Below are positions 29,860 through 55,816 of a stretch of 64,000 nt of DNA, in pieces. A program made the position numbers and the translations under genes. Location: the NCBI GenBank assembly GCA_964514595.1, contig CAZEQZ010000002.1, forward strand, positions 185,663 to 249,662, read 5' to 3'. Positions within the stretch are counted from its first letter, which is position 1; each line of letters starts with the position of its first letter. The notes beneath the pieces were generated by a model. It saw only the letters and a program-made list of their open reading frames with translations, searched no databases and had not been told where the DNA came from. The DNA comes from an uncultured Candidatus Saccharibacteria bacterium (GTDB lineage: Bacteria > Patescibacteriota > Dojkabacteria > SC72).

Positions 29860-31038
29860 CTATATTTTTACCAAGTATCTTGCACTTACCCACCCTACTA
29901 AATCAGCTCCATACTGTACCTGATACCAACCTTCCTCCTCCCCTAGTAAAATGAAGACAGTACCATCATCTGCACTGTCCAATATTTTACAACTTGACCA
30001 CCTACACTCTCTAATATTCACGAAATTATATGTCGGAGAAGATACTTCCACTAATTGCTTCTCTCCCCGAGAGATTTCAAATTTAACATCAAAAGAGGAT
30101 CCTTCAAATGGCTTTCCTTCAAACTTAAGCAATTCGAACGATTCAGTAGCTTCTCCTAATAAGACTCTTGCTTCCAATTCAAACTCCACCTCCACGGATT
30201 CTCCAGGTAGTATGTTCTTATCCGATACACTCACAGGCTTACTAAAACTTTCCCATTCCTGATTTATTGCAAAGCTACTCTCCTTCCCATCTTTTACAGA
30301 TATATATACTGGATCCCTGTCTGTGAACCAAATAAAGTCATTATTATTCTTAAATTTCACCTTCACCTTTAGCCTTTCTCCTATCTCCAATTGCTCTTCA
30401 TGCACCACCTCTTCTATTCTCGCTCGATATTCTAGGTTCTCCGCTTCATATCCTTCCCAGCCTGAAAGTACTTCCAATACTGAATTAGCAAACTCTCCAG
30501 ATATTTCCTCAGCTGTTATGGTAGATAGTTTTCCTTCTTCCTGGTTAATATTTAGCTTTACTACAGAAAGTTGAGATATTCCCCAATTAGAGGATATCTC
30601 CTCTACCATTTGATTTAAAGAATCGGTAGCCCTATTTGAAAGTATGGAGTTGTTTGACATATATCCTATTGTGACTGCACCTTCCACTTCTCTAAGCTCT
30701 GGATTAGCACCAACACCACCCTCTTTGCCTTGATATATTATCCCATTCTCATCAAGGAGGTATGTATATGGGAGGTCGGAGAAGTGTAGTCTGGTTATAC
30801 TGTAGTAGTAGAGAGTCTTAACCCATTTTGCAGGATCTCTAAGTAGTATGTCGGAATCTGTTGTTACTTGAGTTATGTATATCTTAACTGGATTACTGTA
30901 TATGGTATTAGACTTGTCTGATAGTGAAGTGTCAAATTTCTGACTTTGCGTTGAGTAGTATGAAAATGCCAAAGCAGATGTTGGCTTAAATAGTGCCAAA
31001 GTAAGAAGGAGTGTCAAAAAAAGAATTGTTTTCTTCAT
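29860..31038 (-). CDS. Secreted protein with a degenerate PGRP/amidase_2-like domain and C-terminal bacterial SH3 (SH3b) domain
   Basis: Signal peptide MKKTILFLTLLLTLALFKPTSALA. YTYLLDENGIIYQGKEGGVGAN...TIGYMSNN resembles the amidase_2 core, but the Zn-ligand His residues are replaced. The C-terminal GWYQVQYGADLVGWVSARYL is SH3b-like. Confidence 0.35.
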   Translation of the reverse strand: MKKTILFLTLLLTLALFKPTSALAFSYYSTQSQKFDTSLSDKSNTIYSNPVKIYITQVTTDSDILLRDPAKWVKTLYYYSITRLHFSDLPYTYLLDENGIIYQGKEGGVGANPELREVEGAVTIGYMSNNSILSNRATDSLNQMVEEISSNWGISQLSVVKLNINQEEGKLSTITAEEISGEFANSVLEVLSGWEGYEAENLEYRARIEEVVHEEQLEIGERLKVKVKFKNNNDFIWFTDRDPVYISVKDGKESSFAINQEWESFSKPVSVSDKNILPGESVEVEFELEARVLLGEATESFELLKFEGKPFEGSSFDVKFEISRGEKQLVEVSSPTYNFVNIRECRWSSCKILDSADDGTVFILLGEEEGWYQVQYGADLVGWVSARYLVKI

Positions 31039-31078: not shown

Positions 31079-32122
31079 TTATTCGGGTGCGGGATCTAGT
31101 AACTCTATCTCTTCTGTTTGCTTCTCTATTAAATATTCTGGATTTATACCACATAGATATACTTGTATTTCAGCAAGGTATGTACTTTTGGTAGAATCCA
31201 GCAGTTTTCCAGTTCCTGTTAATTTATACGCAGGGAAGACATATGAGTAATCATAGTTCATAAATACGTATAAATTATCTACGCCTTCAACTTCCAAAGA
31301 TGAGAGTCTAGCAGAAGAACGTACTAAAATATCTTGTTCCCAAAATCTTTCTTCCACAGAGTTTCTCATAAGGTGCATTGGATATTTTGTAAATTTGAGT
31401 ATCTCATCAACTGATATGGTAGGCATCTTCTGTATGGGAACCAATCCTCTCTCAACATCATGAAGAAGAATTGCAAGTGAATACATTCTATTATCCCCCT
31501 CAATACGAATTTCAAATGCATTTCCCTCTAGATATAAAGATCCATACTTAATACCATCCTTTACAAAGAATCCTTTATATAAGTATGAATTCTCGGACTG
31601 CTTCTTTGTCTCTAAAAGCTCTATCTTCTCAATATTAAAATATGTCTTTAAAAATATATCCAAGTCTTTTGCAGAATTAATTTTCATATCTAAGTTAAGT
31701 CCTGTTTGAGATGTAACATAAAATACTCCTGTGTCTTCATCGTATAAGAATGTGTCTGTTTCAAAGGTCTCGTATAATTGATTCTCGTTTGCAATATAAC
31801 GATCGTCCAAATCGTAGAAGTTCTTTATAAAGTTTCTTGCCACAGAGAGATCTGGCTTGTGTAGCTTATATACCATCTGATACTTATCGAATTCTGAGCT
31901 TTCTCCCTGGAGGTTTAATGTAAAATTATCGCTTAATTCCGCAAATGGACTCTCTATGGAGATTATCTCTCCTGCGGGGATATCTTCTTCAACCTTCTTT
32001 GATTTTAGAAAGATTATTGCAATAACAGATAAACCCAGAACAATTCCTATTATTATATACACACCGTAATTTTTTATTATTTTTTTTATTCTATCCATCT
32101 TATCTAGCAAATCCTTTAACAT
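31079..32122 (-). CDS. Bitopic membrane protein (N-terminal TM anchor, extracytoplasmic domain of about 300 aa), unknown function
   Basis: The single hydrophobic helix VYIIIGIVLGLSVIAIIFL follows a basic N-terminus. No catalytic motif was recognised. Confidence 0.4.
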   Translation of the reverse strand: MLKDLLDKMDRIKKIIKNYGVYIIIGIVLGLSVIAIIFLKSKKVEEDIPAGEIISIESPFAELSDNFTLNLQGESSEFDKYQMVYKLHKPDLSVARNFIKNFYDLDDRYIANENQLYETFETDTFLYDEDTGVFYVTSQTGLNLDMKINSAKDLDIFLKTYFNIEKIELLETKKQSENSYLYKGFFVKDGIKYGSLYLEGNAFEIRIEGDNRMYSLAILLHDVERGLVPIQKMPTISVDEILKFTKYPMHLMRNSVEERFWEQDILVRSSARLSSLEVEGVDNLYVFMNYDYSYVFPAYKLTGTGKLLDSTKSTYLAEIQVYLCGINPEYLIEKQTEEIELLDPAPE

Positions 32123-34649
32123 AACTCTTTATCTCAGAATCTAGTTTAGCTGTGCCCGAACTAGAAATACCTTTAGACCAATCTTCCAAGGTCTGTTGAT
32201 CATATCCTCTAGATAACATTGCATCCCTAATCTGTGTTCCAGATTTCACACCATCTATCGTATGAAATTTATATCCTCCATAATTTCCAGAGATTATCTC
32301 AGCTCCCACTTCCATTCCTAGAGGATTTCCATTTAACCCTCCGCTTCTATACTGTACTAGGTGCGTAACCTCATGGACCATGAGACCTTGGAAGTATGAT
32401 AATCCCGCAGAACCCGCCTTTGAAGAATTACATATTATTCCATTATACCTAGCTACACACCAAGCCCATTCACTATACGTACTAGAGAATGTTCCATCAT
32501 CCACAAAGGTCAAAGAAACTCCACTGAGTCCAAATCTTTCTAGGATACTATCGAAGATTTCTTGATAATCGCCTCCCAATAGTTGCCCTATCATATCCTC
32601 CTTCCCTACGGGAGTCCCCGTGGGATCTATTTCATCTATCATATCAGGAGCACCACATGATACTACTTCAAATGGAGCTACATGAGAATGTACCCCCAAA
32701 AGAGAGCTCCCGAATATGATGACAAATCCCGCAAGAGCAACTATTCCCGCTAGGAAATAAACCAAACCCTCCACACCTATCTTAATAGCGTGAGCACTCA
32801 TCTTCATTAAAGGTTGGGATAGTTTGTATACTAACTCAGAAGCAAGGAAACTAATTAATCCTGCGATAGGAGTTCCTACAACCCCAAGTGCAGACGAAAT
32901 TGCTGTAGTGATACCTTTAACTAAGGTTTGTACCCCTCCTTTCAACATCCAATCCTTTACTAAGGCAACTGCTACCGAATTTTTTATACCCAACAATAGT
33001 ACTTTTCCTACAGCATTTCTAACATGAGAAAGAACATGTTTATTTATTAATCCATCTATTTTATCCCTAATTCTTGATATTGTTCCAAATGTCTTATACA
33101 GGTTAGACAACCTCGCATCTTTTTTTAGAAATTTATCTATCATCTCCATTTGTTGAGTAGATACTCTTCCTGCCAAACTTCGTACATATGCATCATCTCC
33201 CTTCTCTAATTCTGCAAGAAATCTAGTCCAATCGAAATTCGATATCTCTCCTAAAATTTGTTTCTTAAACTTTTCCTGCGATCTATACGCTAGATATCCA
33301 AAGCCCTCTCCATCTATCAATGTCTTAACCCAAGCAGCCGGAGAAAGGTAGTAGACAGAATTCATTTTATCGAAGTATGCCTGCTGGAATCGATTAGTTG
33401 CTTCTTTTGCTGCATGGATCTTCAAACTATGCCCCCTTCTTGTAAATGCTTGCTCTTTAGATGGTTGTAACCAATTAATTTGATTATATTTATCTGCAAA
33501 GAATTTCCCGTTAAGAATATTCCCCATAAGGTTTCCGTCTATAAACAAATCTTTTGCAGAATAATACATTCCTTCCCATTGACCTAATTGCCCTGCAAAA
33601 TCTTCGAATCTAGACATTCTGATATCACCCTGTATGCTTCTCATTGAATTTTTTAGTTCCCTTATCTTCACATGCTTGTCTGGGTCGTTACTTCTTTGTA
33701 GTTGAGATATTGCATTAGAGATACTATTTAAATCTCCCTCTAATTTGTTTCTAAATGCTCTTGCAGCTGTTTGATCATATACATTGGCTACAACATCACT
33801 GGCTCTTTGATATTTCTCTGCCTTATCCATATCCCCCGCCATTCTTGCATCTACTGATTTTTTAGAAAGGTTAGCCTTTTCTAAGACGGTATATAGTTCA
33901 CGATTAACAAGTAATTCGTCTCTTATTTTTTCAAAGTTATTATTACTCAAGTGGGTGGAGTAGCTTTGTCTCCATTTTCTATATTGGTTCCACTTCATAT
34001 CCGCCTGTGCATCCCCTAGAGTACCACCGAACATATTTCTAAACTCCTGTCTTGTGAATTCCCTACTATTAGGATCTAGGTATCTTTGTGCTAATTTCTC
34101 ATTTCTGTATGTCACACCAAAGGTGTCGTATTGAGTTCTCATACCTATTGGTTTTTTTGTAAACTCATCTACTTTACCCCCTCTTCCTGCTGCAACCATT
34201 GCTTCTTGAGTATCCTTATCCAATCCATATTTCTTTGCCCACATGTATCCAACTATACCTCTCATTTCCTCCCCTGCCCAAGCTATTCGTTGCTGTTTTC
34301 TAATACCCTCTATCTTCTTGTATTGAGCATCTATGTATGTGCTCGGATTTTCCATCAACTTTTTCAGCTCTCCAAGATTGAACTTGATATTATCTGGAAC
34401 TCTCTTTCCTACACTTACGGTACCCACATCCACATCGAAGGCGTTATTGAAGGCCTCCATTGTCGTCTTATTTACATATAGGAGGGGATTTTCTAGTACA
34501 GCAGTTAAAGCATCAACCATTTCAGAGGAACCATCTACACCAGTGACCTTAACTGGCTTAACTTTATTGGGAGGCTTTTGGGACTCTTCAAATATGAAAT
34601 CAAAAACCGATCCCAGGGCATCTTCGTATTGCTTCTTTTGCTGTGGCAT
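32100..34649 (-). CDS. Large (849 aa) protein: soluble N-terminal region of about 640 aa, cluster of TM helices, C-terminal HExxH zincin-like domain
   Basis: No signal peptide. Hydrophobic helices around residues 640-730 (GLISFLASELVY, LVYFLAGIVALAGFVIIFGSSLL). Motif GLMVHEVTHLVQY with a downstream Glu (GMEVGAE) near the C-terminus. Confidence 0.45.
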   Translation of the reverse strand: MPQQKKQYEDALGSVFDFIFEESQKPPNKVKPVKVTGVDGSSEMVDALTAVLENPLLYVNKTTMEAFNNAFDVDVGTVSVGKRVPDNIKFNLGELKKLMENPSTYIDAQYKKIEGIRKQQRIAWAGEEMRGIVGYMWAKKYGLDKDTQEAMVAAGRGGKVDEFTKKPIGMRTQYDTFGVTYRNEKLAQRYLDPNSREFTRQEFRNMFGGTLGDAQADMKWNQYRKWRQSYSTHLSNNNFEKIRDELLVNRELYTVLEKANLSKKSVDARMAGDMDKAEKYQRASDVVANVYDQTAARAFRNKLEGDLNSISNAISQLQRSNDPDKHVKIRELKNSMRSIQGDIRMSRFEDFAGQLGQWEGMYYSAKDLFIDGNLMGNILNGKFFADKYNQINWLQPSKEQAFTRRGHSLKIHAAKEATNRFQQAYFDKMNSVYYLSPAAWVKTLIDGEGFGYLAYRSQEKFKKQILGEISNFDWTRFLAELEKGDDAYVRSLAGRVSTQQMEMIDKFLKKDARLSNLYKTFGTISRIRDKIDGLINKHVLSHVRNAVGKVLLLGIKNSVAVALVKDWMLKGGVQTLVKGITTAISSALGVVGTPIAGLISFLASELVYKLSQPLMKMSAHAIKIGVEGLVYFLAGIVALAGFVIIFGSSLLGVHSHVAPFEVVSCGAPDMIDEIDPTGTPVGKEDMIGQLLGGDYQEIFDSILERFGLSGVSLTFVDDGTFSSTYSEWAWCVARYNGIICNSSKAGSAGLSYFQGLMVHEVTHLVQYRSGGLNGNPLGMEVGAEIISGNYGGYKFHTIDGVKSGTQIRDAMLSRGYDQQTLEDWSKGISSSGTAKLDSEIKSYVKGFAR

Positions 34650-34662
34650 AGATATTTAAAAA

Positions 34663-35970
34663 CTATTTAAACATACTTCCAACAAATGGAACTTTTCCAA
34701 ATCCTTCCTTAATTGCCGCAGCTGCATCTGCACCACTCTTGGATGCTGTGGGAGGAATTATTGCTTTTGCCAAGGCAGGAGCTTGAACTGCAGCATAGAT
34801 AGCTATTAATTTTGCTAAAGCGATTAGCATAGGGCCCATATCTCCTATGCTTGCCTGATCACCTGTAAGAGATTTAGGAAAATCTATTGATATGTTTTTT
34901 GTTTCTAGATAGAAGGGTATGTTAACTATGGCAAATGCTATTGGAAAGACTAGGGCATTACGAAATATTGATTTAAATATATTAACTATACTAGCATCAT
35001 TTCCTGGTAAGGAGCCTAACATTATTGATAATGGAGCAACTATCACATTCAACAGTATAGCTAAGTATGATTTAACTAATGTAATCCAAAGCTTTATTGC
35101 TCCAACTAAGGCCGCTCCAGCAATAATTATTCCCAATATAATGGGGATTAATCCGGCTACCGCATTCAGTGTTGCTAACCCCAAGACTATTCCAACTAGA
35201 GATATTGAGGAACCTGTCTGAGCTCCTCCACTCCAAGTTACTGCCCAAATATCATGTATTGGGACCCCACTTCCTAGAAGACTTTTTATTACTGTCATAA
35301 GGACACCGCATATGTCAATAATTACTCCCGCTATGGCAAAACTAAAGGTTACCAAGACTAATGATATTACAACCCTTGGAAGTGTATTACCTAATGTTAC
35401 CAAGGTCTGACCTCCCAGTTTACTTCTAAACATTATCATAAAGCCTACTGCAATCATCACTACAACAAAGGCAAGGTACGCTATATTTCTTGTAAAGGAC
35501 CATATTTCATCAACACCGGTACTCCTAATATCATCATAACCTGAAGCATATATAGATTGTGTCTCTTTATATCCTGGAACCCATTCCCTTGAGAGATGTG
35601 CTATGACATCAATCCTTGGTTGAGAATCAAACATGGCTGTAACTTGACGTTCAGCGGTACCTAATAAACCGTATTTCATCTGATCAGGATAATTTCCTGT
35701 TTGTATCCTAGGATTCGCTTCCGTACACTCTGGACAAAGTATAGCAAGTATGAATTCTCCTATTCCCGTAATGATTTTCCCTACAAACTGGGCTATACTT
35801 TCCCCTACAAAGCCAGTCAGATCTCCAACAAAGGAAACTATATGTTCCCATGTGGTCTTTGTGTCTATGGGTTCACCTAGCGTATCTTGGGCCAGTATAG
35901 GGGAACTTAAGCTTGTGATGAATACAAATAGTGTGGTCATCAATACAACAATTATCCTAAGAGCTTTCAT
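34663..35970 (-). CDS. Polytopic membrane protein, TrbL/VirB6-like topology (signal peptide, extracytoplasmic loop with a Cys pair, about 6 TM helices, Ala-rich C-terminus)
   Basis: Hydropathy pattern. CPECTEANP loop. TM-rich Gly/Ala/Ile core. The family assignment is by architecture only. Confidence 0.35.
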   Translation of the reverse strand: MKALRIIVVLMTTLFVFITSLSSPILAQDTLGEPIDTKTTWEHIVSFVGDLTGFVGESIAQFVGKIITGIGEFILAILCPECTEANPRIQTGNYPDQMKYGLLGTAERQVTAMFDSQPRIDVIAHLSREWVPGYKETQSIYASGYDDIRSTGVDEIWSFTRNIAYLAFVVVMIAVGFMIMFRSKLGGQTLVTLGNTLPRVVISLVLVTFSFAIAGVIIDICGVLMTVIKSLLGSGVPIHDIWAVTWSGGAQTGSSISLVGIVLGLATLNAVAGLIPIILGIIIAGAALVGAIKLWITLVKSYLAILLNVIVAPLSIMLGSLPGNDASIVNIFKSIFRNALVFPIAFAIVNIPFYLETKNISIDFPKSLTGDQASIGDMGPMLIALAKLIAIYAAVQAPALAKAIIPPTASKSGADAAAAIKEGFGKVPFVGSMFK

Positions 35971-35997: not shown

Positions 35998-37440
35998 TTA
36001 TATTAACAAATAATGCTTTGCTGATTCTCTGTTTAATTCCAAAACTTCATTCCAATACTCTATAAACGTTGGAATAAAGTCTTCTTGACCAGGAGCCTTG
36101 TCTTTAGCCTGCATTCTATAATTCATTAGGAAAGGTGTCGCATCCCATAGACACCACACATCAAATTCTCCTGTTGCTCCATTATCATAAGTTGCTATAC
36201 CACTACATTGTGTAGCTACATAGAACATTAAACTATCTTCAATATTATTAGAGACCTCCTTCTTAGAGGCTGTTTGAAAAGGAGCCTGTGTAGCAAGGTA
36301 TGTGTATGTCATAAAAGCATTAGAACATATACCATTATTACAATCATATGTGTTCCCAAATATTGGTGTCATTTCTACCATGAGACCCCTAGATCTAGGA
36401 CATTTCTCACGCTTAATAGATTTATTCCCCTCTTCATCTATAATTTCAACACCATCTTCATCACAGTAGTCCCATTGATTGGAGCTAAACGTTTGTCTAA
36501 AAAGACCCTTGAAGCGTGTATATATTGATCTTTGGTCACACGCCTTCCATACCCCATCATTAGTACCTAAAAAAGTAACACTAACACTACTCAAACACTC
36601 CGCTTCTCGTTGATAATCATAATTATCTCCTCCTGGGATTTGCTGTCTCGTAAAGCCACCCCCGCTATCTCCCCTCAGATTACTAGCCCCAACGTTGAAA
36701 TCGCTTGTACTAACCTCACGAGGACAGTTACACGCGGGATCATTTTCCGCATTATCTATGTTATATCTTCCATCTCTCTTTTCCTGCTCCTGATTAGCAG
36801 AGACAGTTAATTGACCAGTAACTTCAAATGCCTGTCTTTCAGTAGCTGGCAACTCTTTCACGAAGGCATCGGACTGATATGGAGCCATAGTCTTTTCCAC
36901 TATCGCACCTTCCCACTCTCCACTAGAAGAATACGACGGATCATCCACTCTAATCTGTCTGTTACTATCCTTCATAGTATATGGACCTAACCAGAGAGCG
37001 AGAGGATATGTGACCATAGTAAGTTCAAAATCAACTATATTTTCCACCTCAACTTCATCTCCGGAGAATCCCACAGGATCACCTCCATAATTAGGAACTT
37101 CATAGTGAATCTGTGCACCACCAGATGAGCAAAGCCTTCTCTCCAAATCTACAATATTAGCAGGTTGTCTACACAAAGATGATATCTCTCCCTTAACCTC
37201 TCCTCCCTCTGCATACTCGGTAGCGTTACTATCTTCCAAAAATACATACTCTACATTCTCTGTTACTATATTTTCTTCCCTACTAGGAGAGCATGTTGAG
37301 CACTGTTGCGCATCTTTATTCAACCACCTCCCATCGAACGAAACCTTTATACTTTTAGCTAGGTATACTGAGAAAAGAGCAAAGAATAGCATGCCTAAAA
37401 GAAACAAGATCCCATTTTTCCTACTATTTTTTATACTCAT
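35998..37440 (-). CDS. Secreted cysteine-rich protein (480 aa, about 17 Cys)
   Basis: N-terminal signal anchor (ILFLLGMLFFALFSVYLA). Cys clusters (CSTCSP, PACNCPRE, DYCDEDG, YDCNNGICSN). No known catalytic motif. Confidence 0.4.
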   Translation of the reverse strand: MSIKNSRKNGILFLLGMLFFALFSVYLAKSIKVSFDGRWLNKDAQQCSTCSPSREENIVTENVEYVFLEDSNATEYAEGGEVKGEISSLCRQPANIVDLERRLCSSGGAQIHYEVPNYGGDPVGFSGDEVEVENIVDFELTMVTYPLALWLGPYTMKDSNRQIRVDDPSYSSSGEWEGAIVEKTMAPYQSDAFVKELPATERQAFEVTGQLTVSANQEQEKRDGRYNIDNAENDPACNCPREVSTSDFNVGASNLRGDSGGGFTRQQIPGGDNYDYQREAECLSSVSVTFLGTNDGVWKACDQRSIYTRFKGLFRQTFSSNQWDYCDEDGVEIIDEEGNKSIKREKCPRSRGLMVEMTPIFGNTYDCNNGICSNAFMTYTYLATQAPFQTASKKEVSNNIEDSLMFYVATQCSGIATYDNGATGEFDVWCLWDATPFLMNYRMQAKDKAPGQEDFIPTFIEYWNEVLELNRESAKHYLLI

Positions 37441-39293
37441 AATGCTCTAATCATTTTACCCCCTTTCCTTTGTCTTGTCACACTTCCTTTATATGTGACT
37501 ACCCCTATAGAGATAAGGGCAAAGGAAAGCAATATTAAGTATACTACATTATCCAATATTCCTGTTTTTGGAGTTTCTATCCCCGAATCTACTTCATACT
37601 CTGAATCGTCTGGAGTAACTACTAAATCAGGATTTACACCCGTACTATGTCCTAAGATTCCGTAGTTCTGAAGTAGCTCTACCCTTGTATACCCCACTCC
37701 TGAGCTAGAATTCCCCTCTACGGATATTTCAACATCCCTATCACTTATGCCTTGCATTTTCTCTGTATGTGTACTTGCTGAGAATGTTGTTACCAAATTT
37801 ACATTAAGCGAATCTTCAGACGTATACTCAAAGTATGAGGTACCGTCCTGAACTCTACTTTCGGCTATTGATAGTATCCATTTACCATTCTCATCAACTA
37901 GGGTAGAGAGTTTTAGACTTTCTCCCTTACTTCCTGCACCATCTTCATCCTTAATATGTACCGTAACTACTACTTCCTTATGCTCTGGCATACCATCTAT
38001 CACTCCAGTCACAGATTCGAATGGTGGAGGAGATGTAAGTGTAGAGAAAGTTTTCACTACATATTTATTCCCCCCATTATCGTATTTATTATCCCCTGAT
38101 TCTATCTCAAAGAAATACTCAGTATCTGGTTGTAGTCTACTTAGAACTACAGAGTGGATATAGTAGTTACTTTTTGTTGTAAGGCCATCTCTTTCATCAG
38201 TAGCTTGACTAGACAAAGAATCACGGGAAGTTCCATAGTTAATATGACCTTTCTCTTTATTCTCTGATATCCAAAGAACCGTAAAGCCTGTGTCTGTTAG
38301 GTTTGTTGTTTGCACACTTGCAGCACCAGACACACCCGAGACTGCTGATCCATCTCCCGTGACCATATCTATCCATTGCAAATTATGTACTATCCTAAAT
38401 ACTCTTCCTGTGTTTCCAGTTGGAGTATCATCTGTCTCCTGGGCTGGAGGGGTTGTCGGAGTTGTTGGCGTTGTCGGTTGTGTGGGCTCTTCTGGTTCTG
38501 CTACAAATGCCTCCAACATAGATACAGGAGGAAAGTCGTTGTATAGAGAGGAATTATCGCCAATTGTTAAGGCATACACATCCTTCAATTTACCACTGCT
38601 ATCAAATAGTTCGGAGTATGTACCTTCCTGTACTGCACCTTTATTAGGACCGGAGATAGCAACAAGAACTATGTTAGTAGAATTGGTAACTACAATAGGG
38701 GTCTTATTGGCAATACTTCTAAATGCAGAGAGGTCTATAACCCAATTACCTCCTGTGGGAATGGTGGTTGATACAGGATACGCAGATTTATCTTTAAGAA
38801 GGGCATATATTATTACATCGTCTCCCACTACCCCCTTAATTCCTCCATGTATGGGATTGGGAGTTGCAGACGTCTCTGTTATTGGAGCAGTTTTGAATGC
38901 AAAGTTTTTGTTTCCTTCACTACGATACTTCTCTCTATCCGATACTATTACAAATTCGTATTGAGTATTTGGATCTAAGTCTTCAATATCGATATGGTGC
39001 GTGTATCTTCTTCTATTACCTCTTTTTGTATCAACAATGGGACTTTTTTCTATTCCATTTTGGATAGGTATTACAGAACCAAATGACTGTACATCTGTGA
39101 CCCAGCTTACGGTAACGGCACTTGTAGTTAATTTACTAATAACAACATTACGAGGTTGTGCCTCTGCTGACGCTCTCGTTATGAGTTGGTATGCTTGGTA
39201 TGATGCAAAAACTACCAAAGGTATTCCTATTAACAGTATCCCTATTATCGTGAGATCTCTTCTTCTTTTACTAGGTACAGTAGCTATTCTCAT
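37437..39293 (-). CDS. Cell-surface protein: N-terminal TM, two purple-acid-phosphatase-N-type fibronectin-III-like domains, Pro/Thr linker, C-terminal TM anchor with basic tail
   Basis: VVISKLTTSAVTVSWVTD...YTHHIDIEDLDPNTQYEFVI and FTVLWISENKEKGHINYG...YYIHSVVLSRLQPDTEYFFEI. PTQPTTPTTPTTPP linker. The C-terminal ETPKTG + LILLSFALISIGVV + RQRKGGK. Confidence 0.5.
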   Translation of the reverse strand: MRIATVPSKRRRDLTIIGILLIGIPLVVFASYQAYQLITRASAEAQPRNVVISKLTTSAVTVSWVTDVQSFGSVIPIQNGIEKSPIVDTKRGNRRRYTHHIDIEDLDPNTQYEFVIVSDREKYRSEGNKNFAFKTAPITETSATPNPIHGGIKGVVGDDVIIYALLKDKSAYPVSTTIPTGGNWVIDLSAFRSIANKTPIVVTNSTNIVLVAISGPNKGAVQEGTYSELFDSSGKLKDVYALTIGDNSSLYNDFPPVSMLEAFVAEPEEPTQPTTPTTPTTPPAQETDDTPTGNTGRVFRIVHNLQWIDMVTGDGSAVSGVSGAASVQTTNLTDTGFTVLWISENKEKGHINYGTSRDSLSSQATDERDGLTTKSNYYIHSVVLSRLQPDTEYFFEIESGDNKYDNGGNKYVVKTFSTLTSPPPFESVTGVIDGMPEHKEVVVTVHIKDEDGAGSKGESLKLSTLVDENGKWILSIAESRVQDGTSYFEYTSEDSLNVNLVTTFSASTHTEKMQGISDRDVEISVEGNSSSGVGYTRVELLQNYGILGHSTGVNPDLVVTPDDSEYEVDSGIETPKTGILDNVVYLILLSFALISIGVVTYKGSVTRQRKGGKMIRAL

Positions 39294-39341
39294 TAATGAT
39301 TATGATACCTGTAATAAGGCTAGAAAACAATCTATGTATTA

Positions 39342-42300
39342 TTATCTTACACTAGGATGCCAGTTACCTACACCCTTTATAACCCTTACGAAGTATGATC
39401 TTTGTTTTTCTATAGGAAAATCAAAGCCGTAGGTTTGAGCACTACCCTCTACAGAAGTATCTCTTTGAAAACCTTCATACGACCCCTTACTCTCTTGCCA
39501 CCTAGTAACATTATCTGCATCAAAATCTATACCTTTGTAGTTAGCTATGTCTTCTAATAATGATTTAGCTGTGTATGATTTAGCCTTAGAACCGTATACC
39601 CCTACTAAGTTCCATCCAGGAATTAGTAGTATGGGTGCAGAATCTCCTATTTGTTCATATTTTATTTCTTTACCAAAGAGAGAAACTCTTATATCCTTTT
39701 TAACATTTAACAGATATCCCTCACCTGGGAGTATCCTAAAGTCATTCTGATCATAGTTACCTGCATTAGCTCCAACTGAGATCCATTTACCATTTTCTAA
39801 TTTTGATATAGAGGAAACAGAATTACCAATGACACTGTTTAGATATTTAATAAGACCGGAAGCTTTATTTAATTCAGATCTTTCATTTATAAAAGGAAAG
39901 GATATCAAATTGAAACCTTTTTTAAGGTCATACCTGTATTCTCTTTGTATTGTAATAACCTCTAAGGTTTCAAAATCTTTACTTAGATTAGTATCTCCTG
40001 AGTCTATTATTCCGTTACCATTAGAGTCCAAGTATACATCAGCACCTTTTGAGTCTGTATCATTTATTATAGCTAAGTAATAATCACCATTTACATTGAA
40101 TATATGCACCCCTCTTCCTACCCTCTCCAAGATGTCTTCTTTTGTATTTATAATATATGACTCGAACTCCTCTGTCTCTTCAGCAAAAACTTTCCCTAAG
40201 ATACTAAATCCTTTGCTCTCAAAGCTTAAGCTTTTATCTTCATTTGTATTCTGAATACTACACCTAGTGTATCTCCCTGAGCCCGAGCCACATACTCCAA
40301 AGTCTTCTATATACGTTTTTATAGCAAAATTTCTATCTTGTGTTGCTTTCATACTCTCGTATTTTTCCTGAGTAATAGGGACCCACTCTTCCTCTGCTGT
40401 AAATTCGTTAATTAATATAGTGGCTACTACAACTCCCCCTACCACAAGAGCTGCTGTTCCCAATCCGACACCCGTTGTTGCCGCTGCTGCTTCTGTAGTT
40501 ATATATATTGTTGGCGCCTGACTAACCGCAAGAGCTGAAGTAGAAGTAGATGCGGCTGTGGTAGCTAGCGATGAGCCTGTGTATACTGTAAGTGCTTTGG
40601 TCCCTACGTAGGGGACAATAGGATACAAACTAGCAGAGGCATATGGCATATCATCAAGTATCTTCTGTATTTCAGGATCTGGTTCTTTTGCATTATTTTC
40701 TTTAAACTTTGCCCATAGTCGATCTACTGCACCTATACTATCACAGTGATAATACATACCTGTATCCGCATTATGATATAGAGTACCCGCTTGCCCATCA
40801 CATTCCTTTCCTGACAAATTGTCAGCCGGAGGGACTTGTAGAAAAGGCATTGCCTGAGCACCAGCTTCTGCATCTATACCAACCCCTTCATCTGGACTCA
40901 TAGAAATACCGTACTCATGTCCTTCGATCCCCCAACGTTTCGTTTCTCCATTACATTTAAGACTACCATCTATGGTAACATAGCCATCACTAAACCAACA
41001 TTTATATGTATAACTATAACAATCCCGTGTAGTACCTGTATTAAATCCTCCACATAGACCTCTACTGTCGGCTTCATCCGCCATTCTATCCCTTAATTCA
41101 TCTGTATATTTATCTTCCGTATCTGGATGTACTTTCACTCTTCCATCTGGGGTACATAAGCACATTTGTGCTGGACCGATGGGTTTTTGTTCATTTGCAC
41201 ACGCACAATCACACTCTTGACTATTACTATATCCACACATCCCCATGTGTCCACAAATATCACCTACACATGTACCTTGTACTCTATTAAAATTAATCTC
41301 ACAATCAGAAGTAAAAACGTCAAAGGTCCCAAGACCAGAAACATTAATTCTTTTACACATTGGAATATCTACCCCATCTATTTTTTTTGTACATGCGTCG
41401 TTAAAACAACTTCCCAGTTCACAACTAACTGAACCTTGCCCCCCACTTGTATCTCTTCCATTAGAACCTGCAAATATCTGTTCATTTATATCCGCATCTA
41501 TAGGGTCCGTACAAGAACCATCAAGCGGATCTAAACAATACCCACCATCATTACTAGGTTCAAATTTAGGAGTACAATCGGGATCCCCCCACCCCAATCT
41601 AGAATCACTACAAACTTCACATTGATTATTATCTCCTCCATCTGTATCCTCCGCACTCACTCCGAAAACAAAAGCTCTTAAATCTATACCATTGAAATCC
41701 TTATTTGTATTAACTACCTCCTTATTCTCTTTCCCAAAAGAATTACCCTCATATATGACACTCTCATCTAACTCATCATCCATTCTCATATCTATAGCCT
41801 TTGCAGGTGCCTTATTATATACATCTATCTCAGTACTCCATCTCCCTTTCCACGTATTCTCTATCGTTAACTTAAGTTTTATATATGTACCTTCATAATC
41901 CTTTACACTATCCCAAAAAGTTGTACCATCCTCCATATATGCATTCATAATATCTAAATACCATCCACCTTCTTCATTTGTAATAGATGAAATCATCTCA
42001 GATTCCACTTGATATATCTCTTCATATACCGTCGCATACACTATTGCATCAGAAGGCCTCTCATAGCCAACCACATCATCTACGTAGTACCTAACAACTC
42101 CATATGCTGGTTCAGGAGTCCTAATTTCCTCAATCTCTTTTCCTGTCTTAAAAGAGTATTCCCCAGTATTCTCAGAAGAAACCCTCTTAAACACATTCCC
42201 ATCCCCAATCATGAAATAGTACTCTTTATTAGATTCCAAACCTCGTATGGTAGCATGATGGACATAATATTCACCCATATCTGTAACTACTATATCGGTA

Positions 42301-42731
42301 AATATCTCCCCTGCATCCACACTACTACTTCCTTCCTCTGATACTTTCTCAGAATTCCTCTGTGCCTCATCTAATTCAGCCTTAGTATAGTCTCTATCAT
42401 CATATGCTAACAAAGAGTTTCCAATCTTGGGCATAAAGGGAAGAATAAAATTTCTCTCCTGATACATAACCATCCCAGGAGTTGGCTCTTCTGTAATCCA
42501 AGATACTGTTGCTGATCCTGCAGTCACATTACTAACCATTACCCTATATGGCACAAAAGAGGATGCCTTATACCATCCCCATATACCTATTCCTATAACG
42601 GCTACTAAACAAACAACTAATACAGGAATAATTACTTTAAGGAAATTAAACTTACCCTTTTCTTTAACCTCAACTTGCTGAACCTGCGGTTCTACGACTG
42701 AAGGAGGAGTCTCTTGATTACCTTCGTACAT
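39342..42731 (-). CDS. Giant (1129 aa) surface protein: N-terminal TM, PAP-N-type Fn3-like domain, long Cys-rich extracellular module, internal hydrophobic segment, C-terminal domain
   Basis: MVSNVTAGSATVSWITEEPTPGMVMYQE...YYVHHATIRGLESNKEYYFMIGDG is paralogous to the neighbouring 618-aa protein. More than 40 Cys lie between residues about 365-660. A TM-like GVGLGTAALVVGGVVVATIL segment follows. Confidence 0.5.
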   Translation of the reverse strand: MYEGNQETPPSVVEPQVQQVEVKEKGKFNFLKVIIPVLVVCLVAVIGIGIWGWYKASSFVPYRVMVSNVTAGSATVSWITEEPTPGMVMYQERNFILPFMPKIGNSLLAYDDRDYTKAELDEAQRNSEKVSEEGSSSVDAGEIFTDIVVTDMGEYYVHHATIRGLESNKEYYFMIGDGNVFKRVSSENTGEYSFKTGKEIEEIRTPEPAYGVVRYYVDDVVGYERPSDAIVYATVYEEIYQVESEMISSITNEEGGWYLDIMNAYMEDGTTFWDSVKDYEGTYIKLKLTIENTWKGRWSTEIDVYNKAPAKAIDMRMDDELDESVIYEGNSFGKENKEVVNTNKDFNGIDLRAFVFGVSAEDTDGGDNNQCEVCSDSRLGWGDPDCTPKFEPSNDGGYCLDPLDGSCTDPIDADINEQIFAGSNGRDTSGGQGSVSCELGSCFNDACTKKIDGVDIPMCKRINVSGLGTFDVFTSDCEINFNRVQGTCVGDICGHMGMCGYSNSQECDCACANEQKPIGPAQMCLCTPDGRVKVHPDTEDKYTDELRDRMADEADSRGLCGGFNTGTTRDCYSYTYKCWFSDGYVTIDGSLKCNGETKRWGIEGHEYGISMSPDEGVGIDAEAGAQAMPFLQVPPADNLSGKECDGQAGTLYHNADTGMYYHCDSIGAVDRLWAKFKENNAKEPDPEIQKILDDMPYASASLYPIVPYVGTKALTVYTGSSLATTAASTSTSALAVSQAPTIYITTEAAAATTGVGLGTAALVVGGVVVATILINEFTAEEEWVPITQEKYESMKATQDRNFAIKTYIEDFGVCGSGSGRYTRCSIQNTNEDKSLSFESKGFSILGKVFAEETEEFESYIINTKEDILERVGRGVHIFNVNGDYYLAIINDTDSKGADVYLDSNGNGIIDSGDTNLSKDFETLEVITIQREYRYDLKKGFNLISFPFINERSELNKASGLIKYLNSVIGNSVSSISKLENGKWISVGANAGNYDQNDFRILPGEGYLLNVKKDIRVSLFGKEIKYEQIGDSAPILLIPGWNLVGVYGSKAKSYTAKSLLEDIANYKGIDFDADNVTRWQESKGSYEGFQRDTSVEGSAQTYGFDFPIEKQRSYFVRVIKGVGNWHPSVR

Positions 42732-42802: not shown

Positions 42803-43126
42803 CTACTTCTTCAAACCTGAGAAAAAATCTCCTACTATTGATATTGTACTACCTATCTTCTTAATGGGTATTAGTATAGCTTCATTTATCTTCCCAACAG
42901 TACCTTTTACTGTGGACACCATATCCTGCACATCATCTACTATGAGAGTAGCCTGTTCCATTATCTTGTTAGCATTCTTTATTATCTCTCTGGAATCTTT
43001 AACAGCATCCTTCGATTCCCTTATGAGCATAGCCAAATAGTATAGAACCAAGGAGAACATAATCGTAATGGCCGATACAATAATCATCCAAAATATCGCC
43101 GGTATTTCTGACATAGTAATAATCAT
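42803..43126 (-). CDS. Small membrane protein, DUF948-like (N-terminal TM plus coiled coil)
   Basis: A 107-aa protein. An N-terminal hydrophobic helix is followed by a charged helical segment (KDAVKDSREIIKNANKIMEQATLIVDDVQDMVSTVKG). Confidence 0.4.
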   Translation of the reverse strand: MIITMSEIPAIFWMIIVSAITIMFSLVLYYLAMLIRESKDAVKDSREIIKNANKIMEQATLIVDDVQDMVSTVKGTVGKINEAILIPIKKIGSTISIVGDFFSGLKK

Positions 43127-53584: not shown

Positions 53585-53663
53585 AACAGAATGATTTTAG
53601 CAAAGTATGTATATATTTGCTACCCATTTTATCTACAATCTTAAATCTGCTAATATCTATACT

Positions 53664-54458
53664 ATGGAAAATAGTTGGAACGTACAAACACATAGTGAAA
53701 ACAAAGTACGAAGAATACGCATATGGATATCTGCTGTATTGGCACTGTCTGGTTTAGTTATAGTTTCCAGCCAGGTTATACCTTTGACAAAATCATACGT
53801 GGAGGGAGTGGTGGAACAAAGGAGAGTTGACATAAAGGTGGATCCTGTACCAGAGTCGTATAAAAAATATATAGAAGAAGAGTTCGCATATTATGATCCT
53901 GGGAAGAGCTACTTTGCAAATCTTTCCCAGCAGTTGGGGAATTTAGACATTACAGGACAATACTCATATAACCCAGATACCAAGACACAAAGAGAAGTTC
54001 TAATAGACAGAGAGTACAAGACGGATATGTCCGTCACTATTGAGAGTGTAGGGATTAAAAATATTAAAATATCATCGAACGTGGAGAGTTCTAATGAATC
54101 TGTATACAATCAATATCTTAAAAATGGTGTTGCCCACTTTAAAGGTACACCTCTTCCGGGAGATGGAGGAAATTCGTTCATATATGGGCATAGCGCTGTT
54201 GAATCATTTTTTAGTAGACATAGGGATTTGCCTGAAACAATATTTTCTAGACTGAATGATATAGATATTGGACAAAAGGTTGTTGTAAATAGAGAGGATA
54301 AAGTATTAGAATATATCGTAAGGAACAAGAAGATTGTAGATCCTGATGATTTTACAATCCTACAACCTTTACACAACAAAGAAACAGTAACATTAATGAC
54401 TTGTTGGCCTTTGGGTATAGGAACTAAGAGATTAATAGTAGTTGCTGAAAGGAGATAA
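53664..54458 (+). CDS. Sortase (cysteine transpeptidase); the ORF is open from 53607, but the second Met at 53664 is the more plausible start
   Basis: N-terminal TM anchor. Catalytic His in NSFIYGHSAV. TLxTC motif VTLMTCWP. Conserved Arg nine residues later (TKRLIVVAE). Confidence 0.7.
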   Translation: MENSWNVQTHSENKVRRIRIWISAVLALSGLVIVSSQVIPLTKSYVEGVVEQRRVDIKVDPVPESYKKYIEEEFAYYDPGKSYFANLSQQLGNLDITGQYSYNPDTKTQREVLIDREYKTDMSVTIESVGIKNIKISSNVESSNESVYNQYLKNGVAHFKGTPLPGDGGNSFIYGHSAVESFFSRHRDLPETIFSRLNDIDIGQKVVVNREDKVLEYIVRNKKIVDPDDFTILQPLHNKETVTLMTCWPLGIGTKRLIVVAERR

Positions 54459-54475: not shown

Positions 54476-55816
54476 ATGGACGATAAACAGAGGAAGACAT
54501 TGATAATTGTGGGAGTTGTTCTATTAATTCTAATGATATCGACTGCAATATTACTTCTGGTAAATAGGAATAAAGGAGGTAATGACCAAGAGCAAATATT
54601 TTCGGGCGAAACGATTGAGTTAACATATTGGGGATTATGGGAACCCTCTTCTGTTATGCAACCAATCATAGATGAGTTTGAAGATAAATATCCAAATATT
54701 AAAATATTGTACTCTCAACAAACTTTCACTAACTATGAATCCAGATTGTATACAAGATTGGAGCAAGCTACAGGATCAGCAGAACCTGCGCCTGACATAT
54801 TTAGAATTCATAATACATGGACACCGAAATACTATTCCTATCTTTCTCCGCTACCATCTTCAGTTATGAATCCACAGGAATATGGTGAGCTATTCTATCC
54901 CACAGCCATAGAAGATTTTTCGGCTAAAGATGGGAATATATATGCCATACCGTGGGAGATAGACGGGTTAATGGTTTACTACAATAAACAGCTTCTATCA
55001 GAGATAGGTACAGACAAACCACCTGAGGATTGGGATTCGTTCTTTGAGTTAGCCCAAAGATTGACCAAAAAGGATGCTAGCGGAAGAATTACTCAATCAG
55101 GTTTGGCAATAGGAACATCGAGAAATATTAGACACTCTGCTGAAATCCTTTCCTTCTTGCTTCTACAAGAGGAGGTCAATGTGATTGACCAAACACGAAC
55201 CAGAGTTACACTGGACACTCCTAAAGTTCAGAAGGTATTTGAAACATATACGAATTTCGCGAGAGGAGATACTGCTATATGGTCCTCCACCTTAAGAACT
55301 GATCTGGAGATGTTCTTTAGTGGTGATCTGGCCATGATGATTGGGCCTAGCTGGAGAGCTTTTGACATTATTGAAGCAGCTCCAACTATTGAGTTTGATA
55401 CTGCCCCACTACCACAGTTGGAAGCTAATCAAGAAAAAATATTCTTTGCCACATACTGGGGAGATGCGGTGAGCAGAACTGCATCTAATCCTGAAGCTGC
55501 GTGGATGTTTATAAAATTCTTGGCAGAAAAAGAGCAACAAATGAAACTGTACTCAAACGCTTCAAAAATCAGAGCATTTGGGGAACCATACTCCTTAGTT
55601 GGACTAAATGAGCAGATGTTAGGAAAACCATACGTCTCAGCAATCGCAGAAATGGCACCGTATATGAGATCGTGGCAAAAGGGTGATGAAATGAGTGTAA
55701 ACACAGCTATTGATGAGGCTATAACAGATATCATTGAAAATGGACAAGATATTAGTACTGCTCTCAAGAAAGCTCAAGAAGCAATTAATGCTAAAATAGA
55801 GGTGACAAATAAATAA
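54476..55816 (+). CDS. Extracellular solute-binding protein, ABC-transporter SBP family 1 (sugar/oligosaccharide type), N-terminally membrane-anchored
   Basis: N-terminal TM. The pattern LTYWGLWEP...PDIF..HNTW...NIYAIPWEIDGLMVYYNKQLL is typical of family-1 SBPs. Confidence 0.7.
   Translation: MDDKQRKTLIIVGVVLLILMISTAILLLVNRNKGGNDQEQIFSGETIELTYWGLWEPSSVMQPIIDEFEDKYPNIKILYSQQTFTNYESRLYTRLEQATGSAEPAPDIFRIHNTWTPKYYSYLSPLPSSVMNPQEYGELFYPTAIEDFSAKDGNIYAIPWEIDGLMVYYNKQLLSEIGTDKPPEDWDSFFELAQRLTKKDASGRITQSGLAIGTSRNIRHSAEILSFLLLQEEVNVIDQTRTRVTLDTPKVQKVFETYTNFARGDTAIWSSTLRTDLEMFFSGDLAMMIGPSWRAFDIIEAAPTIEFDTAPLPQLEANQEKIFFATYWGDAVSRTASNPEAAWMFIKFLAEKEQQMKLYSNASKIRAFGEPYSLVGLNEQMLGKPYVSAIAEMAPYMRSWQKGDEMSVNTAIDEAITDIIENGQDISTALKKAQEAINAKIEVTNK

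Follow-up and report, generated by a model that had tools for sequence, protein, structure and literature searches.

A fibronectin-type module shared by two surface proteins of a conserved Dojkabacteria envelope operon: a candidate stalk and a candidate variable adhesin

Introduction

In the prgA–prgL operon of the Enterococcus plasmid pCF10, the MPF_FATA prototype, the large surface proteins PrgA, PrgB and PrgC, two of them LPXTG-anchored, are encoded just upstream of membrane and wall components, including the polytopic PrgH, the transmembrane (TM)-anchored multi-domain peptidoglycan hydrolase PrgK and small bitopic proteins. Here, we describe an eight-gene operon of comparable layout in a 64,000-nucleotide stretch of DNA from a member of the Dojkabacteria (the window; contig CAZEQZ010000002.1 of assembly GCA_964514595.1), with a focus on two adjacent genes whose products we call p618 and p1129 after their lengths in amino acids (aa), a convention used for all operon proteins below. 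Like the two LPXTG-anchored proteins of pCF10, a monoderm conjugation T4SS (type IV secretion system), p618 ends in a sortase-type signal. Unlike the pCF10 surface proteins, p618 and p1129 carry a fibronectin type III (Fn3) domain of the kind found at the N-terminus of purple acid phosphatases (PAPs), coupled to a further beta-sandwich, instead of annotated aggregation-substance or adhesin domains, and no homology of the operon proteins p435 and p849 to PrgH and PrgK, respectively, was detected. The operon also differs from that of pCF10 in being without PrgI (VirB3), PrgJ (VirB4) and a coupling protein, and in being chromosomal and fixed rather than part of a mobile element.

Dojkabacteria are uncultured bacteria within the Candidate Phyla Radiation (CPR) with reduced genomes and are presumed to be host-dependent. 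The type IV secretion systems (T4SSs) of the CPR are related to the conjugation systems of monoderms, with Dojkabacteria among the carriers (Quinonero-Coronel et al. 2025, 10.1101/2025.01.22.634366 / PMC12102498). The VirB2-like arrays of these systems match the pilin arrays that are ended by p435-family genes in other lineages, whereas the Dojkabacteria operon has neither a pilin array nor a nearby VirB4 and instead places Fn3/immunoglobulin (Ig)-like and Cys-rich proteins upstream. Since no adhesins were detected in the survey of Patescibacteria T4SSs (10.1101/2025.01.22.634366), p618 and p1129 fall outside the repertoire described for CPR T4SSs.

Three further systems invite comparison. The first is the N-terminal Fn3 of PAPs (PF16656), together with PhoD_N: PF16656 is the best Pfam model for all three Fn3 copies in p618 and p1129, but unlike in PAPs no metallophosphatase domain follows, and the Fn3 invariably comes with an N-terminal TM helix and a second beta-sandwich. 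The second is a protein of the CPR Pam pilus, PamR, which combines two FnIII domains with a C-terminal TM helix and was proposed as the terminus of a surface filament and its tether to the membrane (Troman et al. 2026, 10.64898/2026.03.03.709456). Pam operons are reported mainly from Saccharimonadia and Microgenomatia and encode donor-strand-exchange pilins and PapD-like chaperones (10.64898/2026.03.03.709456), for neither of which there was a Pfam match among the Dojkabacteria operon proteins scanned; compared by description only, PamR is a loose analogue of a membrane-tethered Fn3 anchor. Finally, outside Dojkabacteria the module has its closest relatives in Fn3 proteins linked to PilN and PilO, which have the same two-ended topology; unlike p618, they contain a single module, belong to a type IV pilus alignment operon and are only 24–34% identical.

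As judged from comparative sequence analysis, p618 and p1129 are old, conserved parts of a chromosomally fixed envelope operon, with ectodomains that are not enzymes. The reading that we favour, to which we give an even chance, takes p618 as a conserved stalk (with a sortase anchor in lineages with the long form of the protein) and p1129 as a variable adhesin in a Dojkabacteria-wide, T4SS-related envelope apparatus; a host-contact structure is the probable product of the operon as a whole. In themselves, Fn3-type surface proteins and sortase substrates are ordinary. By contrast, the eight-gene operon, the pairing of a stalk with a hypervariable partner, the cassette-swapped hydrolase and the occurrence of the module next to pilN–pilO were not found in the literature searched.

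Two adjacent surface proteins share an Fn3 module

A first-pass annotation of the window, made without database searches, described p618 and p1129 as adjacent paralogous surface proteins that each open with a membrane anchor and a PAP-type Fn3 domain. Both open reading frames (ORFs) are real (Table 1). By hydropathy, each starts with a TM segment (aa 25–57 in p1129, aa 11–35 in p618), for which AlphaFold gives a helix (aa 30–58 and aa 8–41), and each continues with an Fn3 domain above the gathering threshold of PF16656 (Pur_ac_phosph_N; 30 bits). p618 scores 63.8 bits over two stretches, the better of which covers aa 328–402, and its first Fn3 copy is also matched by the Pfam fn3 model (aa 46–121). 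p1129 scores 36.7 bits over aa 62–196, with an insertion of ~50 aa inside the domain, and 22 of 24 p1129 orthologues match the family as well. The motifs from which the domain had first been recognised are all present, the first in the versions VSNVTAGSATVSWIT, ISKLTTSAVTVSWVT and TTNLTDTGFTVLWIS, the second as YYVHHATI, YTHHIDI and YYIHSVVL, and the third as YYFMI, YEFVI and YFFEI.

BLASTP aligns p1129 with p618 across the TM segment, the Fn3 and the next beta domain (E = 2e-6), and unit 1 of p618 with unit 2 (E = 2e-8), which bears out the proposal that p618 holds the domain twice. The similarity is not compositional, because the real score of 47.8 bits is far above that of shuffled controls (16.2 ± 2.6, maximum 24.3; 100 shuffles). 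The homologous unit consists of the Fn3 and a second beta-sandwich (aa 147–255 and aa 427–525 in p618), i.e. ~210 aa rather than ~90 aa, and its copies are ~21–25% identical to one another. Calling the two proteins paralogous is thus right for an N-terminal module of ~250 aa (TM, Fn3 and second beta-sandwich, at 21–25% identity) and wrong for the rest of p1129, which is unrelated to p618. In public sources, all three exact proteins looked up (p1129 among them) go by the name 'hypothetical protein'.

The catalytic part of a phosphatase is missing, as had been noted from the start: neither protein matches the Pfam Metallophos domain at E ≤ 1, and a motif scan of both found no GDxHG, GNH[DE] or GHxH, only a lone GDNKY, of the pattern GDxxY, inside the second Fn3. 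Reading the domain as a non-enzymatic surface module fits this evidence. Alternatively, p618 and p1129 might be accessory or substrate-binding subunits of a PAP- or PhoD-like phosphatase encoded elsewhere, as PF16656 and a weak PhoD_N match in the same scan would allow. Yet Metallophos domains and motifs are also missing from the listed homologues (precomputed Pfam matches), no phosphatase gene is found in the syntenic loci, and the fold is equally near to generic FnIII; we give this idea next to no credence.

Table 1. Coordinates of the operon genes, their parts and the sortase gene in the window
Feature	Position	Strand	Description
p107	42803..43126	-	small protein, N-terminal TM (aa 1–37) and coiled-coil-like region; first operon gene here
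p1129	39342..42731	-	ORF, 1129 aa; giant surface protein anchored at its N-terminus
p1129 N-terminal TM helix (aa 30–58)	42558..42644	-	hydropathy, AlphaFold; kept in homologues
p1129 conserved N-module (aa 61–330)	41742..42551	-	PAP-N-type Fn3 with helical insertion, then beta-sandwich(es)
p1129 central region (aa 333–870)	40122..41735	-	hypervariable, Cys-rich
p1129 second hydrophobic segment (aa 750–780)	40392-40484	-	not conserved; second TM missing in homologues
p1129 C-terminal domain (aa 871–1129)	39345..40121	-	conserved; type II variant
p618	37437..39293	-	ORF, 618 aa; conserved two-unit Fn3/Ig protein, candidate stalk
p618 N-terminal helix (aa 8–41)	39171..39272	-	TM helix or long signal peptide; hydropathy, AlphaFold; family-wide
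p618 unit 1	38529..39158	-	Fn3 (aa 46–135) and beta-sandwich (aa 147–255); Pfam, pLDDT 79–94
p618 linker (aa 262–316)	38346..38510	-	Pro/Thr-rich, disordered, PEEPTQPTTPTTPTTPPAQETDDTP; pLDDT < 50
p618 unit 2	37719..38312	-	Fn3 (aa 328–415) and beta-sandwich (aa 427–525); Pfam, pLDDT 85–94
p618 tail (aa 573–618)	37440..37577	-	sorting-signal-like
p480	35998..37440	-	N-terminally anchored, Cys-rich (14 Cys) extracytoplasmic protein; fast-evolving
p435	34663..35970	-	polytopic membrane protein (multiple TM segments); family large and CPR-wide
p849	32100..34649	-	~540-aa N-terminal domain, 3–4 TM segments, swappable C-terminal ectodomain
p849 HEVTHLVQ motif (aa 759)	32352-32375	-	in ectodomain
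p347	31079..32122	-	N-terminally anchored protein of unknown fold; overlaps p849 3′ end
p392	29860..31038	-	wall-binding protein: PGRP/amidase_2-like N-domain and C-terminal SH3_3
Sortase gene	53607..54458	+	candidate processing enzyme for p618; outside operon

p618 is conserved end to end and carries a sortase-type signal

For p618, an AlphaFold model built with 53 relatives as input reaches a mean predicted local distance difference test score (pLDDT) of 77, with domains at 79–94. In addition to the two units and the linker between them, the model shows a disordered stretch (aa 527–579) and then a TM helix (aa 579–605). At the other end, the N-terminal helix is preceded by KRRR and followed by RASAEA and could be either a long signal peptide or a signal anchor. 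In a Foldseek search of the PDB, the model retrieved only beads-on-a-string FnIII arrays (contactins, fibronectin; E ~1e-8), and the sequence search of the same database gave only weak matches to Ig repeats and designed Fn3 domains. There are 141 full-length relatives at 45–65% identity, and three carry names as Candidatus Dojkabacteria proteins; many genome records with p618 relatives are titled Dojkabacteria or WS6.

The C-terminus, which the first-pass annotation passed over together with the operon context, reads E-TPKTG, then a 22-residue hydrophobic segment, ILDNVVYLILLSFALISIGVVTY, then RQRKGGK, in full KGSVTRQRKGGK. This is the layout of a sortase substrate (xPxTG, ~20 hydrophobic residues and a basic tail), and the stretch with the TPKTG motif, DSGIETPKTGILD, is a candidate sortase substrate peptide. 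Almost all complete relatives of ~585–628 aa, among the 120 listed, have [TI]P[KQE]TG followed by a TM segment and a K/R tail. No other ORF of the window ends in a sorting signal. The sortase gene of the window (PF04203, E = 8e-24) scores 72.5 bits against TIGR01076 (sortase_fam; cut-off 39.35) and lies below every class-specific cut-off. In two loci (L026, 10001–12950; L030, 3899–6870), an extra p618-like ORF of 304–307 aa follows a 665-aa p618 orthologue.

p1129 is conserved at both ends and hypervariable in between

Homologues of p1129 are few and divergent (11 in a first search and seven with a profile). Their alignment holds throughout only for the N-terminal ~340 aa (33–43% identity) and the C-terminal ~290 aa (31–48%). 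The centre is mostly unalignable, with a short patch at aa 482–640 that is 28–33% identical in three homologues, and it contains nearly all of the 27 Cys residues of p1129; homologues have 14–73 Cys. Across 24 orthologues, neither the centre nor the C-terminal domain has a Pfam match. AlphaFold is moderately confident for the N-module (aa 61–330) and the beta-rich C-terminus (aa 920–1129). The C-terminal domain (pLDDT 65–82) is built from two tandem beta-rich repeats of ~95 aa that form an undescribed family (mean column identity of 48% in alignment A10) and for which a profile search of the PDB returned no credible sequence relative. One such repeat is combined with two modules in an Anaerolineae protein (E = 6e-8).

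Two types of the C-terminal domain can be told apart: type I has a Cys-containing tail, whereas type II is marked by its short tail and by an NGNGxxD motif. In the nearest species the domain is of type I (30–31% identical), and the type II of the window recurs in a distant locus (L028; 42% identical, with p618 at 43%). This pattern disagrees with how similar the flanking genes are, which hints at exchange or at an old polymorphism. A contrast in rates is seen with the nearest species (L004), to which p618, p435 and p392 are 63%, 65% and 73% identical, as opposed to 36% for p1129 and 39% for p480.

The module duplications are old

Adjacency and a common module had suggested that a stand-alone PAP-type Fn3 module had recently been duplicated locally and was diversifying under selection, and the fast evolution of p1129 could be taken in the same sense. 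A neighbour-joining tree of unit 1, unit 2 and the p1129-type N-module across ~25 Dojkabacteria species speaks against this. Each type forms its own clade across species (27 of 27 sequences pure for unit 1, 27 of 27 for unit 2 and 23 of 24 for the p1129-type N-module), with identities of 40–58% within types versus 22–25% between them. Since each module copy is a clade of its own, the duplications are older than the divergence of the sampled Dojkabacteria and predate the lineage. Moreover, wherever a contig covers this part, p1129 and p618 are distinct, conserved orthologues and occupy one and the same position, and p618 is 45–65% identical over its full length. Taken together, a recent duplication is very improbable. 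Rapid divergence as such does occur in the central Cys-rich part of p1129 and, of the two proteins, only there; it is not a consequence of duplication. These comparisons rely on identity contrasts and the module phylogeny rather than on dN/dS, because the nearest relatives are at ~65% protein identity, where synonymous sites are saturated.

A fixed operon between housekeeping genes

The genes for p618 and p1129 belong to an eight-gene operon on the minus strand that runs from 43126 down to 29860 in the window, with gaps of ≤71 nt or overlaps between genes; the start of p480, for instance, overlaps the stop of p618 by 4 nt. Synteny was assessed in ~48 Dojkabacteria loci from GTDB species genomes (the scan of which gave 57 loci, non-Dojkabacteria included) and in 41 metagenome loci found via the p435 family. 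In every Dojkabacteria locus long enough to judge, the gene order is p1129-p107-p618-p480-p435-p849-(p347)-p392. The flanks are housekeeping genes, with RsmE/RsmB upstream and UvrD downstream. A promoter and terminator scan was of little informative value, with fewer promoter-like sites than in shuffled sequences and no intergenic terminator-like site inside the operon.

In the genome studied here, p107 lies upstream of p1129. All other Dojkabacteria loci have it between the genes of the 1129 and 618 types, and from the gene orders a rearrangement would seem to have taken place locally, at the end of the operon that evolves fast. The p107 orthologues are 38–70% identical across 47 loci; in Pfam p107 has a weak DUF948 match only and no match to PF18895. 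Conservation is lower for p480 (21–46% between orthologues, with no Pfam match across 18 of them) and for p347, orthologues of which occur at only some loci (25–33% identity). p392 is 36–73% identical across species, carries an SH3_3 domain (E = 2e-9) and, as a family profile, matches peptidoglycan recognition proteins (PGRPs; E = 1.6e-4) and the SH3 of an autolytic lysozyme (E = 5e-7) in the PDB. When the operon proteins were scanned against NCBIfam and PHROGs, a weak amidase match for p392 was the only useful outcome.

Several loci of the sample show peculiarities of their own. Two tandem p435 paralogues are present in L100 (9398–12940). In L002, a heliorhodopsin gene (PF18761; 3662–4426) sits just upstream of the operon between the genes for PNPase and an RsmB-type methyltransferase; the window does not have it. 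Records with the operon or with the pilN–pilO variant described below (L005–L058) are often titled Saccharibacteria, Pseudomonadales, Gammaproteobacteria or Clostridia and are probably mislabelled metagenome-assembled genomes.

A swappable candidate hydrolase and a CPR-wide membrane protein

Among 32 p849 orthologues, the ectodomain is Peptidase_M23 in 11 by Pfam (13 by motif), CHAP in two and of an HExxHxxQ type, in fuller form HE(L/V)xH(Q/L)(I/V)Q, in seven including that of the window. The nearest relative, 53% identical overall, carries M23, unlike the window copy; the ectodomain has been exchanged like a cassette. With M23 or CHAP, p849 orthologues are possible counterparts of VirB1-like peptidoglycan hydrolases; the HEVTHLVQ domain of the window copy is unclassified.

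p435 belongs to a family that counts 3255 cluster representatives (clustering at 50% identity) at E ≤ 1e-3. TrbL (PF04610) weakly matches its relatives (one of 37 and three of 47, i.e. 4/84; best E = 5e-4), from which p435 is possibly VirB6/TrbL-like, homology to VirB6 being weakly supported. Among 93 neighbouring proteins of p435 relatives in other lineages, 23 matched PF18895 (T4SS_pilin) and three each PrgI, M23 and CarboxypepD_reg. Outside Dojkabacteria, p435 relatives close operons that start with 4–9 small T4SS_pilin-like genes with 2–4 TM segments and continue with a single-TM protein of 750–1450 aa. This CPR-wide architecture was seen at L104–L138, e.g. in L113 (14–11431) and L117 (4275–11434). 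L113 also encodes a TM protein with a C-terminal M23 further downstream, L117 and L118 have similarly sized TM proteins, and a 1279-aa ORF on the opposite strand beside the p435 relative of L113 has no relative in the PDB. In most of these loci, no ORF within 10 kb is clearly VirB4-like, as judged by large size and a Walker A motif. Profiles of the Dojkabacteria proteins p618, p849, p392, p480, p107, p1129 and p347 found no partners near p435 relatives elsewhere, even at E ≤ 1. The resemblance to those operons is one of architecture only and would best be called analogous.

The same genes allow a plainer view, in which p618 and p1129 are ordinary wall-associated surface, adhesin or S-layer-like proteins in a locus for cell-wall maintenance or remodelling, with no secretion or host-contact machine. 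Beta-sandwich arrays are generic parts of surface proteins, M23, CHAP, PGRP and SH3 domains are typical of autolysins, the locus has no ATPase, and its flanks are housekeeping genes. However, in other CPR lineages the p435 family is tied to PrgI and to pilin arrays of the T4SS type, and the variable centre of p1129, its incongruent C-terminal types and the swapped ectodomain of p849 suggest a variable external partner more than housekeeping. On balance, we consider the plain wall locus an unlikely explanation.

Relatives of the module next to pilN–pilO

Outside Dojkabacteria, the module turns up in a different setting. In seven of seven Patescibacteria-like loci (L052–L058; e.g. L054, 8068–11599, and L055, 8104–11275), genes for PilN (PF05137, E down to 9e-16) and PilO (PF04350) and a small ORF precede the closest relative (28–34% identity), and the six relatives examined all consist of an N-terminal TM segment, the module and a C-terminal xPxxG with a TM segment and a short basic tail. 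In the pilMNOPQ operons of diderms, this place is taken by PilP and PilQ. The proteins could be part of the type IV pilus machinery, as Fn3/Ig proteins that sit anchored in membrane and wall, in the PilP/PilQ position, to guide the pilus through a monoderm-like CPR wall or to fix it there; in Dojkabacteria their genes would merely have moved beside other envelope genes. Against this stand the phmmer searches, which found no PilN or PilO relative in the operon of the window or in any Dojkabacteria locus, the fixed position of the Dojkabacteria genes beside p435, p849 and p392 instead, and the low identity of the module to the pilNO-linked proteins (24–28%). We regard a role in type IV pili as unlikely for the Dojkabacteria proteins. 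What the two settings have in common is that the module recurs beside trans-envelope filament machines, which as a pattern of gene neighbourhoods fits a wall-spanning structural role.

A proposed pairing of conserved stalk and variable adhesin

If p618 is a stalk and p1129 an adhesin, the parts of the operon could work together as follows. p618 would be exported and, in long-form lineages, joined to the wall by sortase, and would then span the wall as a conserved stalk or spacer. p1129 may dock into the p618 assembly via the common module, with its variable Cys-rich region and C-terminal repeats facing outward as the adhesin that determines specificity. p435 would provide a membrane platform or channel, while p849 and p392 would open and grip peptidoglycan, be it the cell's own or that of a host. 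We count the domain architecture, the sorting signal, the sortase of the window, the synteny and the contrast in rates relative to L004 in favour of this proposal, along with the M23 or CHAP of p849 orthologues, the PGRP and SH3 parts of p392, the neighbours and weak TrbL matches of the p435 family and the published CPR T4SS. In function, the arrangement of surface adhesin, channel and wall hydrolase would resemble that of pCF10, except that the locus has no ATPase.

Several observations weigh against the stalk-and-adhesin reading. The p1129 model has a mean pLDDT of only 49, with no confident structure in the centre. More than 40 of the 120 p618 relatives listed are forms of ~520–550 aa that end just short of the sorting signal. 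In hhalign comparisons with single-sequence templates, the p849 family showed no similarity to PrgK (probability < 1%, at low power), nor did the p435 family to PrgH (probability < 1%) or to TrwI, the VirB6 of R388, and p435 family profiles had no match in the PDB. Genes for VirB4, VirD4 or VirB3 were found neither in nor beside the operon at any locus; no ATPase is encoded among the operon and flanking ORFs of the window, and the Dojkabacteria operon includes no VirB2-like pilin and no VirB3/PrgI. Because p435 finds no support in the PDB or hhalign searches, the link to T4SSs draws on weak Pfam matches and on the neighbourhood in other lineages, and as such is circumstantial. Lastly, outside Dojkabacteria the nearest relatives of the module sit in pilN–pilO operons and point towards type IV pili.

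A bolder version of the proposal, which we put forward tentatively and think rather unlikely to hold, sees the locus as a Dojkabacteria-specific, ATPase-less derivative of the CPR module of pilin array, large surface protein and polytopic membrane protein. Fn3/Ig stalks anchored in membrane and wall would have taken the place of VirB2-like pilins, and the product would be a fixed host-contact organelle with a conserved, sortase-anchored p618 stalk, a lineage-exchanged p1129 tip adhesin that is hypervariable and Cys-rich, and p849 as a cassette-swapped peptidoglycan-hydrolase 'warhead' matched to the host wall. In sister lineages, the stalk module would serve type IV pili in the PilP/PilQ position.

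The locus offers testable candidates for host contact, namely a sortase-type stalk, its hypervariable Cys-rich partner and a cassette-swapped hydrolase, all three fixed beside a family of membrane proteins that accompanies T4SS-type pilin arrays across the CPR. Moreover, the occurrence of the module near pilN–pilO elsewhere suggests a general 'wall-spanning stalk' for trans-envelope machines in monoderm-like CPR cells. Even if this is only partly right, two 'hypothetical proteins' have gained defined architectures and the idea of a recent duplication has been removed.

Other features of the window

Just downstream of the sortase gene and a gene for a solute-binding protein (54476–55816), the plus strand encodes a 675-aa protein (55833–57860) that combines a Big_7 Ig-like domain with a TM segment around aa 500 and a long C-terminal tail, acidic and Pro-rich; it has no sorting signal. 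At ~53.6–54 kb, the GC skew turns from strongly negative to positive, and the coding strand changes from minus (DnaJ) to plus (sortase). Although no dnaA was seen nearby, this switch could mark a replication origin or terminus.

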